Source: Mobula hypostoma
Taxonomy: Eukaryota
NCBI RefSeq assembly: GCF_963921235.1
Contig: NC_086097.1
Location: forward strand, 4,154,001 to 4,218,000
Length of the DNA stretch: 64,000 nt
Direction of reading: 5' to 3'
Shown: positions 1 through 63,030 of the stretch, piece by piece
Layout of the letters: every line of letters starts with the position of its first letter
Position numbering within the stretch: position 1 is the first letter of the stretch
Notes under the pieces: model-generated
What the model was told of the DNA's origin: nothing
What the model saw: the letters and a program-made list of their open reading frames with translations, nothing else
The model's database searches: none
Position numbers and translations under genes: made by a program

Positions 1-1418
1 CTATCTCAGTATCATCTGCATACTTACTAATCCAATTTACCACCCCATCATCCAGATCATTAATGTATATGACAAACAACATTGGACCCGGTACAGATCC
101 CTGAGGTACACCACTAGTCCCCGGCCTCCAATCTGACAAACAGTTATTCACCACTACTCTCTGGCGTCTCCCATCCAGCCACTGCTGAATCCATTTTACT
201 ACTTCAATATTAATACCAAACGATTGATCCTCCCTAACTAACCTTCCATGTGGAACCTTGTCAAAGGCCTTACTGAAGTCCATATAGACAACATCTATCG
301 CTTTACCCTTGTCAACTTTCCTAGTAACCTCTTCAAAAAATTCAATAACATTTGTCAAACATGACCTTCCACGCACAAATCCATGTTGACTGTTCCTAAT
401 CAGGCCCTGTCTATCCAGATGATTATGTATACCATCTCTAAGAATACTTTCCATCAATTTACCCACCACTGACGTCAAACTCACAGGCCGATAATTGCTA
501 CGTTTACTCTTAGAACTCTTTTTAAACAATGGAACCACATGAGCAATACGCCAATTCTCTGGCACCATCCCCGTATCTGATGACATTTGAAATATTTCTG
601 TCAGAGCCCCTGCTATTTCCACACCAACTTCCCTGAAGGTCCTAGGGAATATCCTGTCAGGACCCGGAGACTTATCCACTTTTATATTCCTTAAGAGCGC
701 CAGTACTTCCTCTTCTTTAATCATCATAGATTCCATAACTTCCCTACCTGTTTCCCTTACCTTACATAATTCAATATCCTTCTCCTTAGTGAATACTGAA
801 GAAAATAAATTGTTCAGAATCTGCCCCATCTCTTTTGGCTCCACACATAGCTGTCCACTCTGATTCTCTAAGGGACCAATTTTATCCCTCACTATTCTTT
901 TGCTATTAATATAACGGTAGAAACCCTTGGGATTTATTTTCACCTTACTTGCCAAAACAACCTCATATCTTCTTTTAGCTTTTCTAATTTCTTTCTTAAG
1001 ATTCTTTTTACATTCTTTATATTCCTCGGACACCTCATTTACCCCAAACTGCCTATATTTATTGTAGATATCTCTCTTTTTCCGAACCAAGTTTCCAATA
1101 TCCCTTGAAAACCATGGCTCTCTCAAACTTTTAACCTTTCCTTTCAACCTAACAGGAACATAATGATTCTGTACTCTCAAAATTTCACCTTTAAATGACC
1201 TCCATTTCTCTATTACAGCCTTCCCATAAAACAAATTGTCCCAATCCACTCCTTCTAAATCCTTTCACAGCTCCTTAAAGTTAGCCTTTCTCCAATCAAA
1301 AATCTCAACCCTCAGTCCAGACCTATCCTTTTCCATAATTATATTGAAACTAATGGTATGTGATCACTGGACCTAAAGTGCTCCCCAACACATACCTCCG
1401 TCACCTGACCTATCTCAT
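1..1418 (-). mobile_element. CR1 LINE 'A', ORF2 downstream part (EN end, tether, RT), degraded; continues beyond window start
   Basis: Minus strand reads CR1 RT motifs ([32 protein letters not shown]). It joins 5390 onward once the inserted element B is removed. Confidence 0.9.
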
Positions 1419-1514
1419 AGAAACATAGAAACATAGAAAATAGGTGCAGGAGTAGGCCATTCGGCCCTTCGAGCCTGCACCGCCATTTATTATGATCATG
1501 GCTGATCATCCAAC

Positions 1515-4500
1515 TCAGAACCCCGCCCCAGCCTTCCCTCCATACCCCCTGACCCCTGTAGCCACAAGGGCCATATCTAACTCCCTCTTAAACATAGCCA
1601 ATGAACTGGCCTCAACAGTTTGCTGTGGCAGAGAATTCCACAGATTCACCACTCTCTGTGTGAAGAAGTTTTTCCTAATCTCGGTCCTAAAAGGCTTCCC
1701 CTCTATCCTCAAACTGTGACCCCTCGTTCTGGACTTCCCCAACATCGGGAACAATCTTCCTGCATCTAGCCTGTCCAATCCCTTTAGGATCTTATACGTT
1801 TCAATCAGATCCCCCCTCAATCTTCTAAATTCCAACGAGTACAAGCCCAGTTCATCCAGTCTTTCTTCATATGAAAGTCCTGCCATCCCAGGAATCAATC
1901 TAGTGAACCTTCTTTGTACTCCCTCTATGGCAAAGATGTCTTTCCTCAGATTAGGGGACCAAAACTGCACACAATACTCCAGGTGTGGTCTCACCAAGGC
2001 CTTGTACAACTGCAGTAGTACCTCCCTGCTCCTGTACTCGAATCCTCTCGCTATAAATGCCAGCATACCATTCGCCTTTTTCACCGCCTACTGTACCTGC
2101 ATGCCCACTTTCAATGACTGGTGTATAATGACACCCAGGTCTCGTTGCACCTCCCCTTTTCCTAATCGGCCACCATTCAGATAATAATCTGTTTTCCTAT
2201 TTTTGCCACCAAAGTGGATAACTTCACATTTATCCACATTAAATTGCATCTGCCATGAGTTTGCCCACTCACCCAACCTATCCAAGTCACCCTGCATCCT
2301 CTTAGCATCCTCCTCACTGCTAACACTGCCGCCAAGCTTCGTGTCATCCGCAAACTTGGAGATGCTTCATTTAATTCCCTCATCCAAGTCATTAATATAT
2401 ATTGTAAACAACTGGGGTCCCAGCACTGAGCCTTGTGGTACCCCACTAGTCACCGCCTGCCATTCTGCAAAGGTCCCGTTTATTCCCACTCTTTGCTTCC
2501 TGTCTGCTAACCAATTCTCCACCCACACCAATACCTTACCCCCAATACTGTGTGCTTTAAGTTTGCACACTAATCTCCTGTGTGGGACCTTGTCAAAAGC
2601 CTTTTGAAAATCCAAATATACCACATCCACTGGTTCTCCCCTATCCACTCTACTAGTTACATCCTCAAAAAATTCTATGAGATTCGTCAGACATGATTTT
2701 CCTTTCACAAAGCCATGCTGACTTTGTCCGATCATTTCACCGCTTTCCAAATGTGCTGTTATCACATCCTTGATAACTGACTCCAGCAGTTTCCCCACCA
2801 CCGACATTAGGCTAACCGGTCTATAATTCCCCGGTTTCTCTCTCCCTCCTTTTTTAAAAATTGGGGTTACATTAGCCACCCTCCAATCCTCAGGAACTAG
2901 TCCAGAATCTAACGAGTTTTGAAAAATTATCACTAATGCATCCACTATTTCTTGGGCTACTTCCTTAAGCACTCTAGGATGCAGACCATCTGGCCCTGGG
3001 GATTTATCTGCCTTCAATCCCTTCAATTTACCTAACACCACTTCCCTACTAACATGTATTTCACTCAGTTCCTCCATCTCACTGGACCCTCTGTCCCTTA
3101 CTATTTCTGGAAGATTATTTATGTCCTCCTTAGTGAAGACAGAACCAAAGTAATTATTCAATTGGTCTGCCATGTCCTTGCTCCCCATAATCAATTCACT
3201 TGTTTCTGTCTGCAGGGGACCTACATTTGTCTTTACCAGTCTTTTCCTTTTTACATATCTATAAAAGCTTTTACAGTCCGTTTTTATGTTCTCTGCCAGT
3301 TTTCTCTCATAATCTTTTTTCCCCTTCCTAATTAAGCCCTTTGTCCTCCTCTGCTGAACTCTGAATTCCTCCCAGTCCTCAGGTGAGCCACTTTCTCTGG
3401 CTAATTTGTATGCTACTTCTTTGGAATTGATACTATCCCTAATTTCTCTTGTCAGCCACGGGTGCACTACCTTCCTTGATTTATTCTTCTGCCAAACTGG
3501 GATGAACAATTGTTGTAGTTCATCCATGCAACCTTTAAATGCTTGCCATTGCATATCCACCGTCAATCCTTTAAGTGTCATTTGCCAGTCTATCTTAGCT
3601 AATTCACGTCTCATACCTTCAAAGTTCCCCTTCTTTAAGTTCAGAACCTTTGTTTCTGAATTAACTATGTCACTCTCCATATTAATGAAGAATTCCACCA
3701 TATTATGGTCACTCTTACCCAAGGGGCCTCTCACGACAAGATCGCTAATTAACCCTTCCTCATTGCTCAAAACCCAGTCCAGAATAGCCTGCTCTCTAGT
3801 TGGTTCCTCGACATGTTGGTTCAAAAAACCATCCCGCATACATTCCAAGAAATCCTCTTCCTCAGCACCTTTACCAATTTGGTTCACCCAGTCTACATGT
3901 AGATTGAAGTCACCCATTATAACTGCTGTTCCTTTATTGCACACATTTCTAATTTCCTGTTTAATACCATCTCCGACCTCACTACTACTGTTAGGTGGCC
4001 TGTACACAACTCCCACCAGCGTCTTCTGCCCCTTAGTGTTACGCAGCTCTACCCATATCAATTCCACATCTTCCTGGCTTATGTCCTTCCTTTCTATTGC
4101 ATTAATCTCTTCTTTAACCAGCAACGCCACCCCACCTCCCCTTCCTTCATGTCTATCCCTCCTGAATATTGAATATCCCTGAACGTTGAGCTCCCATCCC
4201 TGGTCACCCTGGAGCCATGTCTCTGTGATCCCAACTATATCATAATCATTAATAACAATCTGCACTTTCAATTCATCCACCTTATTACGAATGCTCCTTG
4301 CATTGACACATAAAGCCTTCAGGCGCTCTTTTACAACTCTCTTAGCCCTTGTACAATTATGTTGAAAAGTGGCCCTTTTTAATGCTTGCCCTGGATTTGT
4401 CGGCCTGCCACTTTTACTTTTCTCCTTTGTACTTTTTGCTTCTATGCTCACTTTACACCCCTCTGTCTCTCTGCACTGGTTCCCATCCCTCTGTTGTGAA

Positions 4501-4562
4501 CTAACCTCCTCACGCCTAGCCTCTTTAATTTGATTCCCACCCCCCAACCATTCTAGTTTAAA
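1515..4562 (-). pseudogene. CR1 ORF2 (APE endonuclease + reverse transcriptase) with two in-frame stops and no frameshift
   Basis: ORFs 2367-4547, 2088-2297 and 1515-2084 share one frame, broken by TGA at 2367-2369 and TAG at 2088-2090. Motifs NARS, ETW, GDFN, SDH, PGPDG, FADD. Confidence 0.92.
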
Positions 4563-5389
4563 GTCACCTCAGTAGCCCCCGCTAATCTCCCCGCCAGGAT
4601 ATTGGTCCCCCTAGGATTCAAGTGTAACCCGTCCTTTTTGTACAGGTCACGCCTGCGCCAAACGAGGTCCCAATGATCCAAAAACTTGAATCCCCGCCCC
4701 CTGCTCCAATCCCTCAGCCACGCATTTATCCTCCACCTCATCGCATTCCTACTCTCACTGTCGCGTGGCACAGGCAGTAATCCCGAGATTACTACCTTTG
4801 CGGTCCTTTTTCTCAACTCCCTTCCTAGCTCCCTATATTCTCCTTTCAGGACCTCATCCCTTTTCCTACCTATGTCATTGGTACCTATATGTACCACGAC
4901 CTCTGGCTCCTCACCCTCCCACTTCAGGATATCTTGGACACGATCAGAAATATCCCGGACCCTGGCACCAGGGAGGCAAACTACCATCCGGCTCTCTGGA
5001 CCGCGTCCACAGAATCGCCTATCTGACCCCCTTACTATCGAGCCCCCTATCACAACTGCCCTCCTCTTCCTTGCCCTACCCTTCTGAGCTACAGGGCCAG
5101 ACTCTGTGCCGGAGGCACGGCCACTGTCGCTTCCCCCGGGTAAGCTGTCCCCCCCAACAGTACTCAAACAGGAGTACCTGTTGTTAAGGGGCACAGCCAC
5201 CGGGGTACTCCCCATCACCTGACTTTTCCTCTTCCCCCTCCTAACCGTGACCCACTTGTCTGCCTCCCGTGGCCCCGGCGTGACCACCTGCCTTCCACTC
5301 CTCTCTATCACCTCCTCGCTCTCCCTGACCAGACGAAGGTCATCGAGCTGCAGCTCCAGTTCCGTAACACGGTCCCTTAGGAGCTGCAC
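4553..5389 (-). pseudogene. CR1 'B' ORF1 (coiled coil + SGNH/GDSL esterase-like domain), 5' truncated
   Basis: VIGGSIVR, CLPGA, HIGTND and DGLHLN motifs typical of CR1 ORF1 esterase. Confidence 0.88.
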
Positions 5390-7040
5390 CTCATTCCCTA
5401 ACAGGAGATCCAACACTGCCCCTTCTCTAGTTGGTACCTCTATGTGTTGCTGTAAAAAAACCATCCTGCACACATTTTACAAACTCCAAACCATCCAGCC
5501 CTTTCACAGTATGGGCTTCCCAGTCTATGTGTGGAAAATTAAAATCTTCCACAATCACAACCTTATGCTTACTACAAATATCTGCTATCTCCTTACAAAT
5601 TTGCTCCTCCAATTCTCACTCCCCATTTGCTGGTCTATAATACACCCCTATAAGTGTTACTACACCTTTCCCATTTCTCAATTCCACCCAAATAGCCTCC
5701 CTAGACGAGCCCTCTAATCTATCCTGCCAGAGCACCACTGTAATATTTTCTCTGACAATCAGTGCAACACCTCACCCTCTTGTCCCTCTGATTCTATCAC
5801 ACCTGAAGCAATGAAATCCAGGAATATTTAGTTGCCAATCACACCCCTCCTGTAACCATGTTTCACTAATAGCTACCACATCGTACTTCCAGGTATCAAT
5901 CCATGCTTTAAGCTCATCCACCTTTCTTATAATGCTCCTAGCATTAAAGTAAATGCATTTAAGAAATTTTCCACCTCTTACTCTCTGTTTACCACTAACG
6001 GTGCAAACAACTTTACTATTTTCTTTTTCTTCCTTCTCCCACACATCTGTTCCTACACTCTGGTTCCCCTCCCCCCCCCCCCCCACCGTATCTAGTTTAA
6101 ATCCACTGGAGCCTCTCTAGCAAACCGACCTGCAAGAATATTTGTCCCCCTCCAGTTCAGATGTAGACCGCCCTGCCGGAACAAGTCCCACCTTCCCTGG
6201 AAAACTGCCCAATTATCTATAAATCTGAAGCCCTCCCTCCTGCACCATGTCTTCAGCCATACGTTGATCTGCGCTATCTTACTATTTCTAAACCCACCTG
6301 CACGTGGCACTTGTAGGAATCCTGAGATTGCTATCCTCGAGGCCCTGTCCTTTAACTTGGCGCCTAACTCCCTAAACTCACCTTACAGGACCTCCTCACT
6401 CTTCCTACCCACGTCATTGGTCCCTACATGGACCACAACATCCGGCTGCTCACCTTCCCTCTTGAGAATACCAAGAACTCGATCCAAGATATCGCGGACC
6501 TTGGCTCCAGGGAGGCAACAGACCATCCGGGATTCTCAATCTCTTCCACAGAACCTCTTATCTGTCCCCCTAACTATCAAATCCCCTATCATTACTGCTG
6601 TCCTCTTTTCCCCCCTTCCCTTCTGAGCTGAGGGTCCCAGAGACACAACCACTGCAACTTGTCCCTGGTAGGTCATCCCCCTCAACAGTATCCAAAATGA
6701 TGTACTTATTGGTGGAACGGCCACAGGGGTGCTCTGCTCATTCTGTCTATTCCCCTTCCCTCTCCTGACCATCACCCAGCTACCTGTCTCCTGACCCTTA
6801 GGGGTGACTATCTCCCTGTAACTCCTGTTTATTTCTGCCTCTGCCTCCCGAATGATCCGAAGTTCATCCAGCTCCAGCTCCAGTTCCCTAACTTGGTTTG
6901 TCAGGAGCTGCAGCTGGATGCACCTTTTACAGGTGTAGTCATCAGGGACGATTGTGCTCACCCTGGCTTCCCACATCCTGCAAACGAAGCACTCAACTGC
7001 CCTAACTGCTGCCTCCATTACCTACTCCTAAGGTAATTAG
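5390..7040 (-). mobile_element. CR1 LINE 'A' 5' part: ORF1 (CxxC zinc finger, esterase) and ORF2 endonuclease, degraded
   Basis: ORFs 6536-7018 (CFVC...CKRC), 6092-6310 (GLHLN) and 5772-6086 (YFNARS, SETW). Confidence 0.9.
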
Positions 7041-7045
7041 ATTTA

Positions 7046-8290
7046 TTAATGGAACTTACACCGCCTTACCTCACTTGTTATTAGGCTGCCAAGGTATCTG
7101 AATTTGTTGACTTGTTTGATGTTTGTATTTCCGATCTTGATCACACATTGTGGGATGTTTGTCTTTCTGAAGATGACCGTACTTTCTGTCTTTTTGGTGT
7201 TGATTGAGAGGCCTCTGTGATTACTTTCTGCTGCCACTAGAGTGAGTAGTTCTTGAAGTTTTGCTTCTGAGTCAACTATTAGTACGATGTATTCAGCATA
7301 GCTGATGTTATTTATATAATGGCCTCCAATTGTGAATCCTTTGATGTCTTTGATATTTCTCAAGATATTTTCACTATACAGGTTGAATAAGTCTGGTGAA
7401 AAGACACAACCTTGCCTGACTCCTCTCATGATATTCACATACTCACTCACTTCTCCTTCTATTCTGATCGATGCTGTCTGGTCCCAGTATAAGTTTCTTA
7501 AGAAACGTATATCTTTCCCATCTATGTCAAGATATTGAAGCATTTCCAGAAGACCTTGGTGTCTGACAGTGTCAAAAGCTTTTGTATAGTCAATGAAACA
7601 TAGGTAGATGTCTTTTTGTGCCTGGATAGCTCGTTCACAGATCATCCATAGCATGAAAATTACATTTCTGGTTCCAGTGTTTTCCACAAAACAGCATTGT
7701 TCTTTATTGATTTCTGGTTTTATACAGCGTCTTGCTCTCATCGTGATTACTCTGAGAATAATTTTTGCCACGTGGCTCATCAGGCTTATTGTACGATGTA
7801 ACTCACATTCTGTTGCTCCCTCTTTCTTTGGAAGTGTGATGAACACTGATTTACTTAAATCATCAGGTATCTCCCCATGATCATAGATTTCATTTGCTGT
7901 TTCTGTTATTTTCTCTATTCTGAAATCTTCTAAGGCCGGTATCATTTCAACAGCGATGTTGTCTGGATCAGTTGCTCTGTTATGTTTTGTTTTATTTATG
8001 GGCTAGGTCCTTCAAGATTTTTTTGATGTTCAGGTTTTCTCCTCTTTGGTCTTCAAAAAGTTCTTTTACATATTCTGTAAAATCTGTTTAGGATTTCCTC
8101 TTTGCTCATAATTAAGTTGCCGTATTTTGCCTTGATGCATCCACTTGCTGAGCAAGGTAATTTCCCCGTTAGTTCTTTAATCTTACCTTGCATCAACTTT
8201 GTTGCAGGGTTATGGGTTTGTAGCATTTCTATCTCTGAGCATTTCTCATTTAGCCATCTGTCTTTAGCTTCTCTGCATTTTCCTCCTGGG
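7046..8290 (-). mobile_element. RTE-clade LINE reverse transcriptase fragment
   Basis: ORF 7046-7945 contains ECELHRTISLMSH, FIDYTKAFD, GVRQGCVFSPDLFNLYSE and FRYLGS, typical of RTE. Confidence 0.85.
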
Positions 8291-8775: not shown

Positions 8776-8871
8776 AAAAGGTCTCTCGACAAAAAAGAAG
8801 GTAAACTGCCCCAAAATCGAATTTAGACAAATACTTAATATTGCATAACTATATTAATAAAAGGGGCAAGG

Positions 8872-9858
8872 ATGATGTCTAAGAACAAGAATAAAAAGTC
8901 CGCTTCGAAGGCTGATAAACATAAAGAGATGCAGCAAGGCGACGGGCCTAGCTCCCCCACGGCAAGCCAGGACGGAGATAATGAGGGGGAATCGGTGACT
9001 CTGTCTTTGATTCTCGGAGAGATTCGTGAGTTCCGACAAGATAACAGCAAACAGCTGGAAGATATTAAAGGAGAAATAGTAAAAACTAACTCGCGGATAG
9101 ATGAAGCCGAAGCGAGGATTGTTGGAATTGAAGAGAAGCTACAAAACGCCGAGGAAGTGATAGCAGAAATGCTGAAGCTACAAGACCAGCTCCAGTGGAA
9201 ACTAATAGATCAAGAAGGCCGCTCGAGAAGGGAAAATGTGAGGATCTACGGAGTTCCCGAAGGAACCGAAGGTAAACCCGGATTGATGATTCCCTTCGTG
9301 GAGAAGCTGCTTAGAGAGAACCTTGATATACCGGCCGCAAAAGACCTACAGATAGAAAGGGCTCACTGCGCGTTGGCACCACAGCCTCCGGCAGGCGCCC
9401 AGCCCAGATCGATTCTGATCAGATTTCTCAGTTACAGAACGAAGGAAGAGGTGCTTAAAAGGGCATGGCAAAAGAAAGGTTTCATGTGGAACAACTGCAA
9501 AATCAGTTTAGACCACGACTACGCACCGGGGATTCTTGCCAAACGGAAGGAATATACGGAAACACGGAGAGTCCTGAAGGAAAACAACATCAGATTCCAG
9601 ACCCTGTATCCAGCTCGGCTGAGAGTCTTTTACGACGAAGGGACAAAAACTTACGCTACGGTGGAGGAGGCAACGTTGGACCTGGCGGACCGGGGACTAC
9701 CTATTAAAGTTATCACCCAACCGGAGTCGCTACTGGAGAGGATTCGGCAGAAGTCGTGGCAGTTAGTGGGGCGAGGACACTCCACTCGAACCAGAGTGTC
9801 AAACTACAAGGAAAAGCTGCAAATATTCAGACGCGAATGTACAGAGAATACAGATTAA
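8872..9858 (+). CDS. L1 ORF1p (coiled coil, RRM, CTD), intact 328 aa
   Basis: EGRSRRENVRIYGVPE, IERAH, PRSILIRF and LYPARL motifs. Confidence 0.9.
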   Translation: MMSKNKNKKSASKADKHKEMQQGDGPSSPTASQDGDNEGESVTLSLILGEIREFRQDNSKQLEDIKGEIVKTNSRIDEAEARIVGIEEKLQNAEEVIAEMLKLQDQLQWKLIDQEGRSRRENVRIYGVPEGTEGKPGLMIPFVEKLLRENLDIPAAKDLQIERAHCALAPQPPAGAQPRSILIRFLSYRTKEEVLKRAWQKKGFMWNNCKISLDHDYAPGILAKRKEYTETRRVLKENNIRFQTLYPARLRVFYDEGTKTYATVEEATLDLADRGLPIKVITQPESLLERIRQKSWQLVGRGHSTRTRVSNYKEKLQIFRRECTENTD

Positions 9859-10220
9859 TTAAGAGAAATGACTGAAAAGAGTAAATCGGACTTAAAAGTA
9901 AAATGAAAACTGGTAACTGAAAATAAACTAGGCGGAATAACTTGAATGATAGCAATATGGTCGAGACATAAATAGGAGAAAATTCTCTATGATTATTCAA
10001 ACTGCTGAGGGCCCTCTAACACAGGGTGAAGATAGAGGTTATCCCTCTGAACTGAGGCGGGTCGGTGCTCAGGCCTCACTGTGGGAAGTCGGGAAAAATT
10101 TTCAAATGTTATACGTTCAGAAATGTCTAGGGTGTGGTTATATGTCTTGGTTTACTGTTGAGAAGGGATTGCTTACTGTTTGGTTAGAAAAGGAGAGTGC
10201 TTTTTTTCTACTAGTGAAAA

Positions 10221-13200
10221 ATGCAAACTGAATTGGTAAAAATAATTTCCTATAATGTTAATGGGGTTTTGAATCCAATTAAAAGAAATAAGATTATGTC
10301 TAAATTGAAAAAAGAGAGGGCACAAATAGCTTTCCTCCAGGAAACACATATGAGCCAATCTGAACTAAAAAGAATGGGCTTTAAGCATGTATTTTATTCA
10401 TCATATAAATTGAGTCACAAAAGAGGGGTAGCTACTTTAATATCAAGTACTCTTAATTATGAACATATTTCAGAGACTAGAGACAAAGAAGGACGGTTTG
10501 TAAAAATCACAGGAAGAATAGAAGGTACAGAAATAACATTGCTGAATGTTTATGCTCCTCCAGGTAGTGAATGGTCATTTTATAGACACATTTTTGACCT
10601 AATGGTCAGTTCTCGAGGGGTAGTAATTTGTGGAGGGGATTTTAATATTAGATTAAATCCTATATTAGATTCTTCAAGAATAGTTACTCAGAATAAACCT
10701 CTGACTCGGAAAGTGAATTCATTGATGGAGAAGTTGGGAATTATAGATGTCTGGAGGGAATTACACCCTACTAGTAAAGATTATACATATTACTCTTTCC
10801 CTCATTCAGCCTATTCAAGGATAGACTATTTCTTTATCTTTAATACAGATAGACTCAGGATAAAAAACTGTAATATTGCAACAATTGATCTGTCGGATCA
10901 TAGCCCAGTCTCTATGTCTCTAATCCTGGAAAGGAAAATGAGGAAAACACTATGGAGGCTAAACTCACATATACTCAATAACCCGAAAGTAATGGAGAGA
11001 TTAAGGGGAGAAATCAAAGAATATCTAGACCTTAATGACATGGGAGAAACATCACCAGTGATTTTATGGGATACATTGAAAGCTGTACTGAGAGGGAAAA
11101 TTATTTCCATTACTACTCACATGAAAAAAATCAATGCACAAAAATTAGCAGACCTTCAAGGAAAATTAAGACAACTTCAAGCTGTAGATAGCAACAAAAG
11201 TAATTCAAATCGAAAACAGGAAATTAGGAAATTGCAAAGTGAAATTGATGATATTTATACGTTAGAAACTCAAAGAAATTTTCTTTACCTGAGACAAAAG
11301 AATTATGAAGTAGGAGGTAAATCAGCTAGATTATTAGCATATAAATTACGAAAACAACAAGCAGACAATACAATTCATAAAATAAAGAATCCAAAGACAA
11401 AGCTTGTGGAGAGTACAATAGGGAAAATTCAAGAGAGTTTTGAAACATATTATCGAGAGCTGTACTCCCAACCCCGGGCCCCCAATGAGCCCTATATAGA
11501 CAGTGTATTGAATTTTTTAGATCTACCTAAACTTACAGATTTACAAAATGAAAGTTTATTAGAACCAGTAACTGTCAAAGAACTGAACGTGGCCATCTCT
11601 AGGTTAAAGGCTGGAAAGTCCCCGGGTTCTGATGGGTTTACCTCAGAGTGGTACAAGTCCCTGAAGACACAGTTAGCCCCATTACTACTTAACACCTTTA
11701 ATTGGATCTTGCAGAGAGGAGAAACTCCACCTTCCTGGAGAGAAGCGATTATTTCAGTTATTCCTAAAGAGGGTAAAGATAAACTAGAATGTGGCAATTA
11801 TCGGCCAATTAGTGTTCTTAATTTAGATTACAAACTATTTACATCTATATTAGCGCGCAGATTGGAAAAGCTTTTACCTGGCCTAATCCATTTAGACCAG
11901 ACTGGATTTATTCAACAAAGACAAACACAGGACAACATAAGGAGAACTCTGCACATATTAGAACAGGTTAATAAGAACGAGACAGAGACAATGGTAGTAG
12001 GATTGGACGCTGAGAAAGCTTTTGATTCGGTTAGTTGGGCATTCCTATACAGAGTGTTAGGAAGATTCGGCTTTCAAGAAAGGTTTATTAAAGTAATTCA
12101 GACTCTATATGACAGCCCTACAGCCCGAATTAAGATAAATGGGGACCTCTCTGACTCCTTCATTTTAGAGAGAGGCACTAGACAGGGATGCCCAATTTCT
12201 CCTCTCCTTTTTGCGCTATATATTGAACCACTTGCCCAACTAATAAGACAGAGCGAAATCGTAAAAGGTATCAAGGTGGCAGGGATTGAACAGAAAGTGG
12301 CGTTATTCGCAGATGATGTTTTGGTCTATCTGAGTGAACCAGAAAAATCATTTATAGGATTGTTTACACTGTTGGATGACTTTGGGAAAATATCAGGTTA
12401 TAAAATAAATGTAAAGAAAACGCAGGTTATGTCCCTAAATTATACACCATCCAAAAAATTGCAGGATACATACGATCTTAAGTGGGAAGCTAAATCATTA
12501 AAATATTTAGGAATAACCCTGCCGAAGGATCTTTCAACACTGTCACAGGTAAATTATGGGCCATTAATCTCAGAGATAAAAACAGATATGCATAGATGGA
12601 ATCTTATCCCCTTTTTAAGTTTAAATTCAAGGATAAATACTATAAAAATGAATATTCTTCCTCGGTTATTATATCTTTTCCGTACTTTACTAGTGGAGGT
12701 GGATGATAATCAATTCAGGGAATGGGACAAATGGATTTCCCGCTTCATTTGGCAAGGAAGGAAACCTAGAATTCGATATAACACCTTACAGTTAGGGAAG
12801 GAAGGAGGAGGTATGGTTCTTCCTTGCCTGACAAATTATTTTTATGCCTCACAGATAACCCCTCTGTTATATTGGTGTAATAGGGAATATAAGGCTAGAT
12901 GGAAGGAAATAGAATTTGGATTAGTTGACAGTTTTCCTCTTCAGGCCTCAATAGCTGACAAAGGATTGATGGCCCAGTTGGAAAAATTTAATAATGCTTG
13001 GATAAATCTTACATTAAAAGTATGGCAGAAGGTGGTTAATTCATGTGGAATTAATAACATGTTAAAGCTCTTTAGATGGTGTGCATATGATACCGAATTC
13101 CTTCCCAACAGAGGAGATAAAAGATTTGAGCTATGAATAAAGAAAGGTCTTACAACCTACCTCTCATTTATAGATAAAAGAGTATTACAAAGTTTCCAAA

Positions 13201-14000
13201 TCCTGCAGGACAAACATGGCCTAGAACATAATGACTTTTTTAGGTACCTTCAAATACAAAACTATGTTAACCAGAGTTGTAGATATACAGACCTATCAAC
13301 AGTAGAATTAGAATTTTTCAAGATTCTGAATTTGGCTTGCAGTTCAATACCTAGTAAATCAGTTTCTCGCCTATATAATGCACTCTCCCATGCTAAAAAT
13401 GTAAATACACTGTATATTAAAGAGAAGTGGGAGAAAGAAGCGGGGTTGGTACTTTCAGAGGAGGCTTGGGGGAAAATCTGCAGCTTTCAATGGTCCTCGA
13501 CTAATTCTTTGACTTGGAGAGAACATTGTTGGAAAAACATTATAAGATACTTCAAGACCCCATATCAGGAAAAATATAAAGATACAAATGTGATATGTTG
13601 GAGAAGGTGTGGCTCCAAGGAGGCAAATCATTTTCATATTTTCTGGGATTGCCCTAAATTAAGTCTATTTTGGGAAGGTATTCATAGAACATTAGTTAAG
13701 GTACTTAGGTCCCAGATACCTCTGAACTTTGAGACGCTCTATTTGGGGCATGTATTGTTCCTTGAACAGAAGGAAGATATAAAGTTGCTGCAGGCCCTCT
13801 TAGCGGCAAGTAAGAAATCAATCACTAGAAAATGGCTAAATCCAATACCACCTACATTCGAAGATTGGTACAAAATTATCTTGGAAATATTTAAAATGGA
13901 AAAGTTGACTTACTCCCTGAGAACTCAAAAAGAAACATTTTATCAAATCTGGAATAAATGGATTGAATATATAACCCCAATGCGAGCAGACTTTAGATGA
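10221..14000 (+). pseudogene. L1 ORF2p (EN-RT-CCHC) interrupted by a single TGA at 13134-13136
   Basis: ORFs 10221-13136 and 13332-14000 are in the same frame with open sequence between them. Motifs SYNVNG, LQETH, SRIDY, SDH, FADD, CWRRC..H..WDC. Confidence 0.93.
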
Positions 14001-18860: not shown

Positions 18861-18910
18861 CTAGATTAAAGAAGGTGCTCTGCTACCTAAACTAGCTTGT
18901 TTTCTCCCTT

Positions 18911-20779
18911 CTTGTTCAATCTCTTCCTACCTATGTTGGTGACACTTCTCACGCTCTTAGACTTTTCGATGATTTTAAGTTCCCTGGCCCCCACCACTTT
19001 ATTTTCACCATGGATGTCCAGTCCCTAAAGTCCAGTCCCAAAGCTCTCGGCTTCTTTTTGGATTCCAGACCTAACCAGTTCCCCTCTACTACCACTCTGC
19101 TCTGTCTAGTGGAATTAGTCCTTACCCTTAATAATTTCTCCTTTGGCTCCTCCCACTTCCTCCAAACTAAAGGTGTATCTATGGACACCCGTATGTGTCC
19201 TAGCTATGTCTGCCTTTTTGTTGGCTTTGTGGAACAATCTATGTTCCAAACCTATTCTGGTATCTGTCCCCCACTTTTCCTTCACTACATCGACGACTGT
19301 ATTGGCACTGCTTCCCGCACGCATGCTGAGCTCGTTGACTTCATTAACTTTGCCTCCAACTTTCACCCTGCCCTCAAGTTTACCTGGTCCATTTCCAACA
19401 CCTCCTTCCCCTTTCTAGATCTTTCTGTCTCTATCTCTGGAGACAGCTTATCTACTGATGTCTACTATAAGCCTACTGACTCTCACAGCTATCTGGACTA
19501 TTCCTCTTCTCACCCTGTCTCTTGCAAAAATGCCATCCCCTTCTCGCAATTCCTCCGTCTCTGCCGCATCTGCTCTCAGGATGAAGCTTTTCATTCTAGG
19601 ACGAGGGAGATGTCCTTTTTTAAAGAAAGGGGCTTCCCTTCCTCCACCATCAACTCTGCTCTCAAATGCACCTCCCCCATTTCACGCACATCTGCTCTCA
19701 CTTCATCCTCCCGCCACCCCACTAGGAATAGGGTTCCCCTTGTCCTCACCTACCACCCCACCAGCCTCCGGGTCCAACATATTATTCTCAGTAAATTCCG
19801 CCACCTCCAACGGGATCCCACCACTAAGCACATCTTTCACTCCCCCCCCCCCCGCTTTCTGCAGGGATCGCTCCCTACGCGACTGCCTTGTCCATTCGTT
19901 CCCCCCCCCATCCCTCCCCACCGATCTCCCTCCTGGCACTTATCCTTGTAAGCAGAACAAGTGCTACACATGCCCTTACACTTCCTCCTTTACAACCATT
20001 CAGGGCCCCAGACAGTCCTTCCAGGTGAGGTGACACTTCACCTGTGAGTCGGCTGGGGTGATATACTGCATCTGATGCTCCAGATGTGGCCTTCTATATA
20101 TTGGCGAGACCCGACGCAGACTGGGAGATCGTTTCGCTGAACACCTACGCTCTGTCCGCCAGAGAAAGCAGGATCTCCCAGTGGCCACACATTTTAATTC
20201 CATGTCCCATTCCCATCCTGATATGTCTATCCATGGCCTCCTCTACTGTAAAGATGAAGTCACACTCAGGTTGGAGGAACAACACCTTATATTCCGTCTG
20301 GGTAGCCTCCAACCTGATGGCATGAACATTGACTTCTCAAACTTCCACTAATGCCCCGCCTCCTCCTCGTACCCTATCTGTTATTTATTTATTTATATAC
20401 TCACATTCTTTCTCTCTCTCTCTCCTTTTACTCCCTCTGTCCCTCTCACTATACCCCTTACCCATCCTCTGGGCTTCCCCCTCCCCCTTTTCTTTCTCCC
20501 TAGGCCTCCTGTCCCATGATCCCCTCATATCCCTTTTGCCAATCAATTGGCTCCATCCCTCCCCCTCCTGTCTTCTCCTATCATTTTGGATCTCCCCCTC
20601 CTCCTCCCACTTTCAAATCTCTTACTAGCTCTTCCTTCTGTTCGTTCTGATGAAGGGTCTCGGCGCGAAATGTCGACTGTACCTCTTCCTAGAGATGCTG
20701 CCTGGCCTGCTGCGTTCACCAGCAACTTTGATGTGTGTTGCTTGAATTTCCAGCATCTGCAGAATTCCTCGTGTTTGCG
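18911..20779 (+). mobile_element. Penelope-like retroelement (RT + GIY-YIG endonuclease), 5' truncated and disrupted
   Basis: YIDD and FLDL RT motifs; VIYCI..C..C..YIGET..LGDRFAEH nuclease; 3' terminal repeat. Perfect 14-bp TSD TTGTTTTCTCCCTT at 18897-18910 and 20780-20793. Confidence 0.92.
20644..20678 (+). ncRNA. Minimal type-I hammerhead ribozyme motif in Penelope terminal repeat (some helix mismatches)
   Basis: CTGATGA-agggtctcggcgc-GAAA-tGTC-gac. Confidence 0.7.
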
Positions 20780-27845: not shown

Positions 27846-29410
<1,565 letters not shown>

Positions 29411-43042: not shown

Positions 43043-45745
43043 TGATAGAGAGGGTGGAAAAGGGGGAGGAGGGGTGGCATTACTGGTCAGGGATACTATT
43101 ACAGCTACAGAAAGGGTGGGTAATGTAGCAGGATCCTCTTTTGAGTCAATATGGGTGGAAGTCGGGAACAGGAAGGGAGCAGTTACTCTACTGGGGGTAT
43201 TCTATAGGCCCCCTGGTAGCAGCAGAGATACAGAGGAGCAGATTGGGAGGCAGATTTTGGAAAGGTGTAAAACTAACAGGGTTGTTATCATGGGTGACTT
43301 TAACTTCCCTAGTATTGATTGGCACCTGATTAGTTTGAAGGGTTTAGATAGGGCAGAATTTGTTAAGTGTGCCCAGGATGGATTCCTGTCACAGTATGTG
43401 GACAGACCGACCAGGGGGAATGCCATACTAGATCTAGTACTAGGTAATGAACCGGGTCAGGTCACAGATCTCTCAGTGGGTGAGCATCTGGGGGACAGTG
43501 ACCACCGCTCCCTGGCCTTTAGCATTATCATGGAAAAGGATAGAATCAAAGAGGACAGGAAAATTTTTAATTGGGGAAAGGCAAATTATGAGGCTATAAG
43601 GCTAGAACTTGCGGGTGTGAATTGGGATGATGTTTTTGCAGGGAACTGTACTATGGACATGTGGTCGATGTTTAGAGATCTCTTGCGGGATGTAAGGGAT
43701 AAATTTGTCCTGGTGAGGAAGATAAAGAATGGTAGGGTGAAGGAACCATGGGTGACAAGTGAGGTGGAAAATCTAGTCAGGTGGAAGAAGGCAGCATACG
43801 TGAGGTTTAGGAAGCAAGGATCAGATGGGTCTATTGGGGAATATAGGGAAGCAAGAACGGAGCTTAAGAAGTGGCTGAGAAGAGTAAGAAGGGGCTGAGA
43901 AGAGCAAGAAGGGGGCATGAGAAGGCCTTGGCGAGTAGGGTAAAGGAAAACCCCAAGGCATTCTTCAATTATGTGAAGAAAAAAAGGATGACAGGAGTGA
44001 AGGTAGGACAGATTAGAGATAATGGTGGGAAGATGTGCCTGGAGGCTGTGGAAGTGAGCGAGGTCCTCAATGAATACTTCTCTTTGGTATTCACCAATGA
44101 GAGGGAACTTGATGATGGTGAGGACAATATGAGTGAGGTTGATGTTCTGGAGCATGTTGATATTAAGGGAGAGGAGGTGTTGGAGTTGTTAAAATACATT
44201 AGGACAGATAAGTCCCCGGGGCCTGACGGAATATTCCCCAGGCTGCTCCACGAGGCGACAGAAGAGATTGCTGAGTCTCTGGCTAGGATCCTTATGTCCT
44301 CGTTGTCCATGGGAATGGTACCGGAGGATTGGAGGGAGGCGAATGTTGTTCCCTTGTTCAAAAAAGGTAATAGGGATAGTTCGGGTAATTATAGACCAGT
44401 GAGCCTTACGTCTGTGGTGGGAAAGCTGTTGGAAAAGATTCTTAGAGATAGCATCTAGAGAATCATGGCCTGATCAGGGACAGTCAGCATGGCTTTGTGA
44501 AGGGCAGATCGTGTCTAACAAGCCTCATAGAGTTCTTTGAGGAGGTGACCAGGCATATAGATGAGGGTAGTGTAGTGGATGTGATCTATATGGATTTTAG
44601 TAAGGCATTTGACAAGGTTCCACATGGTAGGCTTATTCAGAAAGTTAGAAGACATGGGATCCAGGGAAGTTTGGCCAGGTGGATTCAGAATTGGCTTGCC
44701 TGCAGAAGGCAGAGGGTGGTGGTGGAGGGAGTACATTCAGATTGGAGGATTGTGACTAGTGGTGTCCCGGAAGGATCTGTTCTGGGACCTCTACTTTTCG
44801 TGATTTTTATTAACGACCTGGATGTCGGGGTAGAAGGGTGGGTTGGCAAGTTTGCAGATGACACAAAGGTTGGTGGTGTTGTAGATAGTGTAGAGGATTG
44901 TCAAAGATTGCAGAGAGACATTGATAGGATGCAGAAGTGGGCTGAGAAGTGGCAGATGGAGTTCAACCCGGAGAAGTGTGAGGTGCTACACTTTGGAAGG
45001 ACAAACTCCAAGGCAGAGTACAAAGTAAATGGCAGGATACTTGGTAGTGTGGAGGAGCAGAGGGATCTCGGGGTACATGTCCACAGATCCCTGAAAGTTG
45101 CCTCACAGGTGGATAGGGTAGTTAAGAAAGCTTATGGGGTGTTAGCTTTCATAAGTAGAGGGATAGAGTTTAAGAGTCGCGATGTAATGATGCAGCTCTA
45201 TAAAACTCTGGTTAGGCCACACTTGGAGTACTGTGTCCAGTTCTGGTCACCTCACTATAAGAAGGATGTGGAAGCATTGGAAAGGGTACAGAGGAGATTT
45301 ACCAGGATGCTGCCTGGTTTAGAAAGTATGCATTATGATCAGAGATTAAGGGAGCTAGGGCTTTACTCTTTGGAGAGAAGGAGGATGAGAGGAGACATGA
45401 TAGAGGTGTACAAGATAATAAGAGGAATAGGTAGAGTGGATAGCCAGCGCCTCTTCCCCAGGGCACCACTGCTCAATACAAGAGGACATGGCTTTAAGGT
45501 AAGGGGTGGGAAGTTCAAGGGGGATATTAGAGGAAGGTTTTTTACTCAGAGAGTGGTTGGTGCGTGGAATGCACTGCCTGAGTCAGTGATGGAGGCAGAT
45601 ACACTAGTGAAGTTTAAGAGACTACTAGACAGGTATATGGAGGAATTTAAGGTGGGGGCTTATATGGGAGGCAGGGTTTGAGGGTCGGCACAACATAGTG
45701 GGCCGAAGGGTCTGTACTGTGCTGTACTATTCTATGTTCTATGTT
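43043..45745 (+). mobile_element. Young 5'-truncated CR1 (EN part, RT, 3' UTR)
   Basis: ORFs 43029-43898, 43871-44458 and 44497-45681; (TTCTATG)n tail. Confidence 0.92.
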
Positions 45746-59945: not shown

Positions 59946-60407
59946 TAAAACAAATTATTTTGTTCTCCTTTACACCTGTGTACTGGAAATGACATTAAAA
60001 AACCTTAATACTTAGCTATCAAATGCTATTGTGCTTCAGAGGTAAGAAACACCACATTGTTTTGCTGAATCACTTTGAAGTATTGTGTTGTCAGATATGC
60101 TAATTTATTTGCAACAATTCTTCAACAGGTGCCCGACAACTATAATAGTAGTTGACTTAGTAACCTTTGCAAATGGAATGTCTACAAACTTTAAGCATTT
60201 AGGAGTAAACAAGGTCATACAAATCTCATTGACCAAAGATTGTGTGGGTTCTGAGAATGCTGAAGACTCACTTCCATGAGCAAAGCTTGTTAAAGATGTC
60301 AACATAAACTGATATTTATGATAGATAGGTGCTTGAAGGTATTTGTGTAAACCTTTCCTGATAAGCCTCTTTGAAAAGGCATGAAATATGGAAATGAGTA
60401 ATATGAA

Positions 60408-62143
60408 CACAGAACATAGAATAGTACAGCACAGTACAGGCCCTTCGGCCCACTATGTTGTGCCGACCTTCAAACCCTGCCTTCCATATAAGCCCCCACC
60501 TTAGATTCCTCCATATACCTGTCTAGTAGTCTCTTAAACTTCACTAGTGTATCTGCCTCCACCACTGACTCAGGCAGTGCATTCCACGCACCAGCCACTC
60601 TCTGAGTAAAAAACCTTCCTCTAATATTCCCCTTGAACTTCCCACCCCTTACCTTAAAGCCATGTCCTCTCATATTGAGCAGTGGTGCCCTGGGGAAGAG
60701 GCTCTGGCTATCCACTCTACCTATTCCTCTTATTATCTTGTACACCTTTATCATGTCTCCTCTCATCCTCCTTCTCCCAAAGAATAAAGCCCTAGCTCCC
60801 TTAATCTCTGATCATAATCCATACTTTCTAAACCAGGCAGCATCCTGGTAAATCTCCTCTGTACCCTTTCCAGTGCTTCCACATCCTTCCTATAGTGAGG
60901 TGACCAGAACTGGACACAGTACTCCAAGTGTGGCCTAACCAGAGTTTTATAGAGCTGCATCATTACATCGCGACTCTTAAACTCTATCCCTCGACTTATG
61001 AAAGCTAACACCCCATAAGCTTTCTTAACTACCCTATCCACCTGTGAGGCAACTTTCAGGGATCTGTGGACATGTACCCCAAGATCCCTCTGCTCCTCCA
61101 CACTACCAAGTATCCTACCATTTACTTTGTACTCTGCCTTGGAGTTTGTCCTTCCAAAGCGTACCACCTCACACTTCTCTGGGTTGAACTCCATCTGCCA
61201 CTTCTCAGCCCACTTCTGTATCCTATCAATGTCTCCCTGCAATCTTTGACAATCCTCTACACTATCTACAACACCACCAACCTTTGTGTCGTCTGCAAAC
61301 TTGCCAACCCACCCTTCTACCCCCACAGCCAGGTCGTTAATAAAAATCACGAAAAGTAGAGGTTCCAGAACAGATCCTTGTGGGACACCACTAGTCACAA
61401 TCCTCCAATCTGAATGTACTCCCTCCACCACCACCCTCTGCCTTCTGCAGGCAAGCCAATGCTGAATCCACCTGGCCAAACTTCCCTGGATCCCATGCCT
61501 TCTAACTTTCTGAATAAGCCTACCGTGTGGAACCTTGTCAAATGCCTTACTAAAATCCATATAGATCACATCCACTACACTACCCTCATCTATATGCCTG
61601 GTCACCTCCTCAAAGAACTCTATCAGGCTTGTTAGACACAATCAGCCCTTCACAAAGCCATGCTGACTGTCCCTGATCAGACCATGATTCTCTAAATGCC
61701 TATAGATCCTATCTCTAAGAATCTTTTCCAACAGCTTTCCCACCACAGACGTAAGACTCACTGGTCTATGATTACCCGGACTATCCCTACTACCTTTTTT
61801 GAACAAGGGAACAACATTCGCCTCCCTCCAATCCTCCGGTACCATTCCCGTGGACAACGAGGACATAAAGATCCTAGCCAGAGGCTCAGCAATCTCTTCC
61901 CTCGCCTCATGGAGCAGCCTGGGGAATATTCCATCAGGCCCCGGGGACTTATCTGTCCTAATGTATTTTAACAACTCCAACACCTCCTCTCCCTTAATAT
62001 CAACATGCTCCAGAACATCAACCTCACTCATATTGTCCTCACCATCATCAAGTTCCCTCTCATTGGTGAATACCGAAGAGAAGTATTCATTGAGGACCTC
62101 GCTCACTTCCACAGCCTCCAGGCACATCTTCCCACCTTTATCT
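60408..62143 (-). mobile_element. Young CR1 copy, near-identical to 44015-45745
   Basis: Translations almost identical (ORFs 60763-61641 and 61642-62208 vs 44497-45681 and 43871-44458). Confidence 0.92.
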
Positions 62144-62144
62144 A

Positions 62145-63030
62145 TATAGAACATAGAACAGTACAGCACAGGAAGAGGCCTTTCAGCCTGCAATGTTGTG
62201 CCGAACAAATTAAATTAGTAATCAAATAGCCAACTGAACTACTGTAATCTCGTCTATCTACACAATGTCCATGTCCCTCCATTTTCCTCACATTCATGTG
62301 CCTATTGAAGCAATTCTTAAAAATCCCTAATGTATCTAATGTCCCTGATGTAATGTGTGGGGTGGCACGGTGGCAGTAGTCACCATATCGCTTTACAGTA
62401 CCAGCAGTTCCCAATGGTGCCTATAAGAAGTTTGCACATTCTCACAGCAGCTGTATGGGTTTCCTCTAGGTACTCCAATTTCCTCCCACAGTCCAAAGAT
62501 GTACTGGTTGGCAAGTTAAATTGTCATTGTAAATTGTCCTGTGATTAAGCTATGGTTAAATTGGAGGACTGCTGGGCAGTGTGGTTCAAAGAGCTGGAAG
62601 GACCAGTTCCGCTGTATCTCAATAAATAAATACAATAAGTACCTCTGTTACCACCCTAGGTAGTGCATTCCAGGCATCGACCGCTTTTTGAGTAAAAAAA
62701 CGTCCTAACATTTCTTTTAAAATCACTCCCCTCTCATATTAAATGCATCCCCTCTGGTATTAGACATTTCTACCATGGGGGGAAAAGATACTGTCTGTCT
62801 ACTCTGTCTATGCCTCTCATAATCTAATAAACCTCTATCAGATCTCCCCTCAGCCTCCACTGCTCCAGAGTAAACAATCCAACCTCTTGTTAAAATACAT
62901 ACCCTTAAATCCAGGCAGCATCCTGGTAAACCTCGTCTGCACCCTCTCCAAAACCTTGACATCCTATAATGAGGCAACCAGAACTATATACAATACTCTT
63001 GATGCAGCCTAACTAGAGCTTTATAAAGGT
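62145..63030 (-). mobile_element. Older CR1 3' fragment containing a V-SINE-like insertion (62357-62634, + strand)
   Basis: CR1 tail and ORF2 end; V-domain TGGGTTTCCTCTAGGTACTCCAATTTCCTCCCACAGTCCAAAGA. Confidence 0.78.

Follow-up and report, generated by a model that had tools for sequence, protein, structure and literature searches.

The boundary between the two open reading frames of a CR1-type LINE carries a slippery heptamer with a directly abutting stop codon, and is probably a programmed -1 ribosomal frameshift site that would give an ORF1-ORF2 fusion and has been inherited by vertebrate CR1 LINEs. Two copies of this junction, in elements here called A and B, lie on the minus strand of the window, by which we mean the whole stretch of 64,000 nucleotides that was analysed; the window is eukaryotic and rich in LINE fragments. 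CR1 is the dominant LINE in most vertebrates, and the heptamer at its junction is a slippery signal familiar from coronaviruses. To our knowledge, the way ORF2 is translated is settled for very few LINEs, reinitiation being the usual explanation. If CR1 has a conserved slippery site, a main vertebrate LINE clade would be relying on the strategy of retroviruses.

Element A comprises the following features:
6092 to 7018, minus strand: ORF1 of element A, with a Cys motif, a coiled-coil-like region and a C-terminal SGNH esterase, ending in Leu-Asn-stop
6095 to 6101, minus strand: slippery heptamer T TTA AAC of element A, in X XXY YYZ phase with ORF1
6092 to 6094, minus strand: ORF1 stop TAG of element A, abutting the heptamer; the -1 frame here reads CTA (Leu)
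6061 to 6084, minus strand: G-rich patch of element A, G14-A-G4-AACCA, starting 10 nt after the heptamer
5390 to 6101, minus strand: first part of ORF2 of element A in the -1 frame, a Met-free linker of 50 codons leading into the APE endonuclease (two stops, one indel)
1 to 1413, minus strand: continuation of ORF2 of element A behind element B, from the endonuclease end to the reverse transcriptase (RT), with 45% identity to ORF2 of element B

ORF1 starts with a Met at 7018 and, when re-read on the minus strand, ends in GAT TTA AAC TAG with the heptamer at 6101-6095, as the first-pass annotation of this DNA had given it. The -1 frame reads F-K-L-D-T-V-G-G-G-G-E-G-N-Q and continues open through YFNARS (Y at 5951) and SETW without a Met. 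The annotation had placed this frame at 5772-6086; its Met-free course into YFNARS and SETW was borne out, but the start given there is merely a GTG, and from stop to stop the frame spans 6116-5772. The G14 run occupies 6084-6071 and is followed by A, GGGG and AACCA. In neither element does an in-frame AUG lie between heptamer and endonuclease, where out-of-frame AUGs occur at 6046 and 5958 in A and at 4551 and 4486 in B. Element A extends on the minus strand beyond the left edge of the window. Its ORF1 is interrupted by two internal stops and briefly leaves the frame, and its ORF2 is damaged by stops and an indel; element A is a dead copy, and its junction signal is a relic of an active parent.

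The second copy interrupts the first:
about 1414 to 5389, minus strand: element B, a 5'-truncated CR1 of another subfamily inserted into the endonuclease region of A, with ATGAG on both sides and an (TTTCTATG)n tail
4553 to 4562, minus strand: heptamer and stop of element B, ACT TTA AAC TAG
4531 to 4545, minus strand: G-rich patch of element B, G6-T-G3-AATCA, starting 10 nt after the heptamer, as in A
2367 to 4568, minus strand: ORF2 of element B in the -1 frame, 733 open codons (endonuclease, RT), with the first in-frame Met near residue 218, deep in the endonuclease

ORF2 of element A resumes at 1413, beyond the TTTCTATG repeats at the 3' end of B. Both elements have the make-up of CR1. The ORF2 combines an APE endonuclease with an RT, recognized by Pfam in B and by alignment of A to B in both domains. 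The ORF1 contains the SGNH esterase typical of CR1 (Lipase_GDSL_2 in Pfam at 8.8e-16 for element B; a match of the ORF1 profile to the ZfL2-1 ORF1 esterase 4C1B at 9e-37). A 3' tandem-repeat tail and 5' truncation of the CR1 type are present in B, the 3' end of A lying beyond the window. The best named homologue of the ORF1 of B is a ray protein with 94% identity and the other named matches are from rays and sharks, which makes a batoid the most likely host; by eye the context of both junctions resembles the available 5' portions of published ray and shark CR1 consensuses.

At its junction, element B carries the same TTTAAACTAGA as A (4562-4552), a G6-T-G3 tract and GGGAATCA; the earlier observation that heptamer, G-tract and a GGGAAxCA-type motif are kept in both elements thus holds at both junctions. 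The accompanying claims that the flanks are strongly diverged and that the conservation is independent went too far. The elements are homologous by descent and their divergence is moderate, with 55% identity over 280 amino acids of ORF1, 39% in the endonuclease part, and identical bases at 15 of 31 fourfold third positions (Leu codons: 4/12). Since A and B are kin, the pair taken alone is only suggestive; we estimate that the chance of the heptamer being common to both by descent alone is small. The only exact matches to TTTAAACTAG in the window are the two junctions. With one mismatch allowed, this 10-mer is not enriched (6 found against 7.66 expected), and the junction signal is therefore one of position and phase, not of count.

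Several other features of the window were recorded alongside. An RT fragment at 7046-8002 on the minus strand, with 24% identity to ORF2 of B and RTE-like by our reading, abuts A just upstream of the ORF1 start, and hence the 5' UTR of A is missing or displaced. A near-complete L1-type element lies at 8839-14000 on the plus strand, with an ORF1 of 339 codons (weak match to the Pfam L1 ORF1 family, E 0.023) and an endonuclease-RT frame of 972 codons that is followed by one stop and a continuation of 287 codons. At 27873-29409 a long inverted repeat aligns over 1.5 kb to its own reverse complement at 85%, and two LINE RT-region copies in opposite orientation (44014-45745, plus strand; 60406-62146, minus strand) are 96% identical. 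Two overlapping open frames on the plus strand, 18896-19951 and 19419-20033, comprise 351 and 204 codons and have no Pfam match up to E 1.

The frame relation at the junction extends to other subfamilies. Three database proteins of such subfamilies (P0029, P0231 and P0043) have ORF1 fused by an indel to the -1 frame of the junction; P0029 and P0231 read F-K-L-x-x-x-G-x-G through N-A-R-S in one frame, and P0043 begins alike. Compared with B and with the subfamilies of these three proteins, element A has three additional Gly codons (9 nt), and judged by this register, its G14 has probably grown from a G5, either in this copy or in its subfamily. The long G-run noted earlier is thus present in A and particular to it, B having G6-T-G3 instead. 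Elements A and B are deeply covered by contigs of the sequencing runs X1 and X17, the latter possibly RNA; among the rows listed, these contain no indel of at least 5% at 5075-6532, where depth dips over the G run and a run shorter by 9 nt could be clipped. With no frequent indel spanning the junction, the contigs agree with a -1 frame in the subfamily of A. Poly-G artefacts may account for the few raw reads from X21 and X22 at this place. An ORF2 frame other than -1, which the first-pass annotation had named as evidence against recoding, was not encountered: A, B and two further subfamilies all have ORF2 in the -1 frame. Of the features that mark a -1 site, an X XXY YYZ heptamer in phase with ORF1 is present in A and B, and an open downstream -1 frame in A, B, P0029 and P0231. 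Nucleotide conservation beyond coding need was also found, mostly from the protein ends and the by-eye reading of consensuses described below.

From the observed sequence, phase, frame, lack of an AUG and conservation, we infer the following course of translation. Ribosomes on ORF1 would meet U_UUA_AAC with the Leu tRNA in the P site and the Asn tRNA in the A site. The majority would read the abutting stop and release ORF1p, and a minority would slip one base back, onto UUU AAA, and go on via C-U-A into ORF2. The product would be a fusion of ORF1p, linker, endonuclease and RT made at a set low ratio, like retroviral Gag-Pol. With mammalian ribosomes, U_UUA_AAC ranks among the heptamers most prone to shifting (PMC5009743; here and below, papers are cited from excerpts unless a term match is mentioned). 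The missing AUG of ORF2 is in itself no proof of frameshifting, because the ORF2 of mammalian L1 is thought to start without its AUG as well (PMC5009743).

If the heptamer is used, its trace should be legible in the ends of ORF1 proteins, which in the data used here derive from gene callers. Among 60 close ORF1 homologues, the His motif lies within 40 residues of the end in 34, and 31 of these 34 end in LN. A larger set of 227 proteins was assembled from the close homologues, the best 150 of 6963 profile matches and further homologues; 151 end 15–45 residues past the His motif, leaving 102 after dereplication (80%, last 30 residues), and 76 were dropped (fragments, other ends, motif unmatched). 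In the dereplicated esterase ORF1 homologues, LN is terminal in 47 and GN in 11 of the 102, and a tripeptide compatible with X XXY YYZ-stop is found at 59/102 ends versus 241/4284 internal positions (5.6%). Eleven different residues occur directly before LN, but never E, Q, K, M or W (0/47, versus 16/47 and 13/47 at the neighbouring positions; Fisher p 3e-4 on rows that are not independent). The codons of these five residues cannot end in T. Residues with codons ending solely in T or C are enriched at the same position (18/47 versus 29/282), and Q precedes GN in 11/11 proteins, permitting G_GGA_AAC. Such a pattern would be expected if TTA AAC were always preceded by T, and GGA AAC always by G, though because the homologues are related, the p values overstate the case.

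A quick tree of ORF1 was calculated with the last four residues left out; its split between A and B lacks support of 95 or more. In this tree, LN and GN reappear in clades far from one another. The vertebrate-type CR1 clade that holds A and B ends in LN in 38 of its 47 rows; absence of the motif from most subfamilies, the other outcome that had been named as evidence against recoding, was accordingly not seen. No compatible end is present in 43/102 homologues, and two clades (9 and 7 rows) are without a conserved end. Distant esterase ORF1s (P0103, P0109, P0111, P0113, P0147, P0165, P0184, P0130 and P0146) end in QGN, SKN, xEN or FF-x, which suggests other slippery heptamers in what are probably invertebrate elements. 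One CR1 ORF1 in the set, P0015, bears the label of an SGNH hydrolase from Pseudomonas aeruginosa; host contamination of the database record is the most likely reason.

The rival that best survives these data is an AUG-free termination-reinitiation as in L1, in which ribosomes would restart near the TAG at a near-cognate codon of the -1 frame, with TTTAAAC and the G patch holding or repositioning them. The ORF2s of L1 and SART1 do rely on ORF1 translation and reinitiation (PMC2881922; PMC3708506; PMC5009743), and near-cognate codons in the ORF2 frame lie just past the stop, namely ACG at 6089 and GTG at 6086 in A and TTG at 4547 in B. Furthermore, P0029 and P0231 contain an in-frame Met in the linker, by which reinitiation is a possibility for their subfamilies. 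We nevertheless consider this route unlikely for the junction as a whole: the near-cognate codon differs between A and B, out-of-frame AUGs (4 nt past the heptamer in B, about 50 nt in A) would capture scanning ribosomes, and both the X XXY YYZ fit in several forms (LN, GN, KN) and the third-base rule before LN would be left unexplained.

Less probable still is that the heptamer is a by-product of shared descent and of a need of ORF1p for a C-terminal Leu-Asn. LN is nearly invariant in the shark-type ORF1 alignment, and about half of the fourfold sites are still identical between A and B. However, given L-N, the codon usage of the element itself yields T-TTA-AAC with a probability of only 0.015 (its Asn codons are AAT in 28 and AAC in 13 cases), and the residue before LN is free save for its third base. 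The distance of LN from the fold also varies, from 18 to 35 residues past the His (22 in 35/47), and LN lies past the part that aligns to the solved ZfL2-1 esterase; judged from these alignments, the position of LN tracks the stop, not the fold. Moreover, protein constraint does not explain an ORF2 without AUG.

Frameshifting is further supported by published CR1-group consensuses, surveyed in the supplement of PMC13343379 over their 5'-most 400 nt. There are 44 places with TTTAAACT, and 19 of these are, by eye, at an ORF1 end (PMC13343379). At these 19 junctions the stop behind the heptamer is TAG in 11, TAA in six and TGA in one, and absent in one (PMC13343379), and in 15 the stop is followed, at most 12 nt on, by a G run of at least four, usually as G4–6, one or two bases and G3–5. 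Six near-miss synonymous patterns gave no hit at an ORF1 end among the matches listed (21 of 37; PMC13343379). One part of the supplement holds 14 stingray CR1 entries, a single one of which reached the ORF1 end within the 400 nt, and this one has the motif. In SquAca_CR1-3 and CR1-18 of the dogfish, TTTAAACTA and a G-rich stretch are located away from any ORF1 end, in the 5' UTR (PMC13343379). The search was biased in that the query asked for the heptamer itself, and the consensuses cannot test the frame because they are gapped; the survey therefore shows breadth, not frequency or frame. We take the consensus labels to denote alligator, crocodile, bearded dragon, bullfrog, coelacanth, bowfin and halosaur, and further ones presumably elephant shark, stingray, sawfish, catshark and spiny dogfish. 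Since the layout recurs from sharks to crocodilians, the CR1 copying enzyme is probably made by a one-base backward slip. The cis-acting recoding signal proposed in the first-pass annotation thus gains support as a -1 frameshift site across many lineages, which the pair of A and B would not have sufficed to give; the comparisons point to a signal that is real, ancient and probably functional, preserved here in a dead copy.

The same consensuses bear on the idea of a DNA or RNA-processing signal, either an internal TATA-like promoter or a splice acceptor, from which a separate ORF2 message would arise. TTTAAA is TATA-like, TAG could serve as the acceptor AG, and TTTAAACTA with G-rich sequence is found in the two CR1 5' UTRs mentioned above (PMC13343379). 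Such a signal would have no need of phase with ORF1, and the separate message would still be without an AUG, so that the idea has at best a very slight chance of being correct. In its splice acceptor form it was rejected because the AG is not kept (TAA or TGA at 7/19 consensus junctions). Stop-codon readthrough was likewise rejected because ORF2 is not in frame 0.

Returning to the frameshift, most -1 sites have a hairpin or pseudoknot 5–8 nt downstream (PMC3919603). The 100 nt behind the heptamer do not fold better locally than shuffled sequences (z -0.95 in A, +0.54 in B), and Rfam has no match to the junction sequence there. One 76-nt window of B reached z -2.0, but it pairs sequence upstream of the heptamer, which the ribosome would occupy. 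Nor is there a run of at least four C within several hundred bases of either junction. What recurs at this place is the G-rich patch: in element B and the consensuses, two short G tracts follow about 10 nt downstream of the heptamer. The first Gly is encoded by GGG and preceded by a codon with G in its third position (GTG GGG in A, TTG GGG in B), the linker being otherwise unconserved, and the patch looks conserved at the RNA level. GGGATGGGAACCAG, the G-rich motif of the junction, is repeated in the linker of B about 60 nt downstream (about 4475-4495, minus strand), and A aligns to either copy.

The G-quadruplex that had earlier been suggested as the stimulator is poorly supported. A three-tier motif is present only in the long G run of A (G4Hunter-type score 3.0, against 1.48 in B), and with quadruplex folding allowed, A forms a multi-tier structure and B only a weak two-tier one, which makes a two-tier quadruplex in B possible. 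By eye, none of the 19 consensus junctions within the surveyed 400 nt has four G3 tracts (PMC13343379). As the usual form has two G tracts, a quadruplex is not likely to be the conserved stimulator, and fewer tiers gave less -1 shifting in engineered reporters (PMC3919603). Ranking the candidates, we place a bound protein and a pause at the stop above a quadruplex and a distant partner. Tentatively, and at less than even chances, a protein bound to the G-rich patch about 10 nt downstream might act as the stimulator, by analogy with PRRSV, whose layout fits in motif and spacing, the binding protein in CR1 being putative. It is also possible, with somewhat greater doubt, that a pause at the abutting stop acts with little else. 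A quadruplex appears rather unlikely, and a distant base-pairing partner more unlikely still.

If frameshifting is correct, the esterase ORF1p forms the N-terminal part of the CR1 RT, and the ORF2 starts annotated for CR1 are wrong. This matters for studies of CR1 mobility in culture, because the signal would be lost if the end of ORF1 were codon-optimised. More speculatively, the CR1 RT might have been a Gag-Pol-like ORF1p-ORF2p fusion since before the split of sharks and amniotes, with ORF1p itself or a host protein that binds G tracts, rather than an RNA structure, tuning the shift from the G-rich motif 10 nt downstream. We regard this extended version as doubtful; if true, it would be a case of protein-stimulated frameshifting beyond RNA viruses and would provide feedback control of retrotransposition.

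A statement of frameshifting in CR1 was not found in the literature covered, in which subscription papers are thinly represented; the 1997 descriptions of chicken and turtle CR1 and Repbase may remark on an overlap or a frameshift. In its excerpted parts, a 2016 review of frameshifting covers HeT-A, TART and L1 and does not mention CR1 (PMC5009743). By term match, PMC3905857 and PMC4316615 do not mention frameshifting and the main text of PMC13343379 contains neither frameshift, slippage, overlap nor translation, and the excerpts of PMC11835228, PMC2881922 and PMC5006619 do not link CR1 to frameshifting. Searches with the junction DNA retrieved no CR1 from viral contigs (6 unrelated chance matches to the motif pattern), metagenome contigs (13 loci, being bacterial-type SGNH hydrolases or chance matches), prokaryote genomes (3 bacterial hydrolases) or plasmids.

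Among known systems, L1 and SART1 have a bicistronic LINE message whose ORF2 depends on ORF1 translation (PMC2881922; PMC3708506). SART1 does so through an overlapping UAAUG, whereas CR1 has no in-frame AUG (A, B) and its ORFs overlap across the slippery heptamer; some CR1-group elements use 2A recoding (PMC3708506). Viral frameshifting of the infectious bronchitis virus type shares the heptamer U_UUA_AAC, its phase and a polymerase ORF in the -1 frame (PMC5009743), but CR1 is a non-LTR retrotransposon, its 0-frame stop abuts the heptamer, and local folding and Rfam gave no hairpin or pseudoknot downstream. In engineered G-quadruplex reporters, UUUAAAC is combined with G tracts and gives up to about 7% shifting at the best spacer of 6–8 nt (PMC3919603); these have four G3 tracts, in CR1 found in copy A alone, while B and the consensuses have two tracts. 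The -1/-2 frameshift in PRRSV nsp2, which is stimulated by nsp1beta and PCBP, has a slippery site, no predicted structure and a short, conserved low-complexity motif about 11 nt downstream (10 nt in CR1), a likeness that is one of analogy only, as the motif is C-rich there and G-rich in CR1 (PMC7939443). Two-ORF Penelope-like elements, which are not LINEs, have a frameshift between ORF1 and RT like that proposed for CR1, together with a pseudoknot of which local folding and Rfam gave no counterpart here (PMC8557442). Finally, the Dictyostelium elements TRE5-A and TRE3-A, which belong to another clade and have another type of ORF1, possess an APE-RT ORF2 that is stated to need a -1 frameshift (PMC5911963), as proposed here for CR1.
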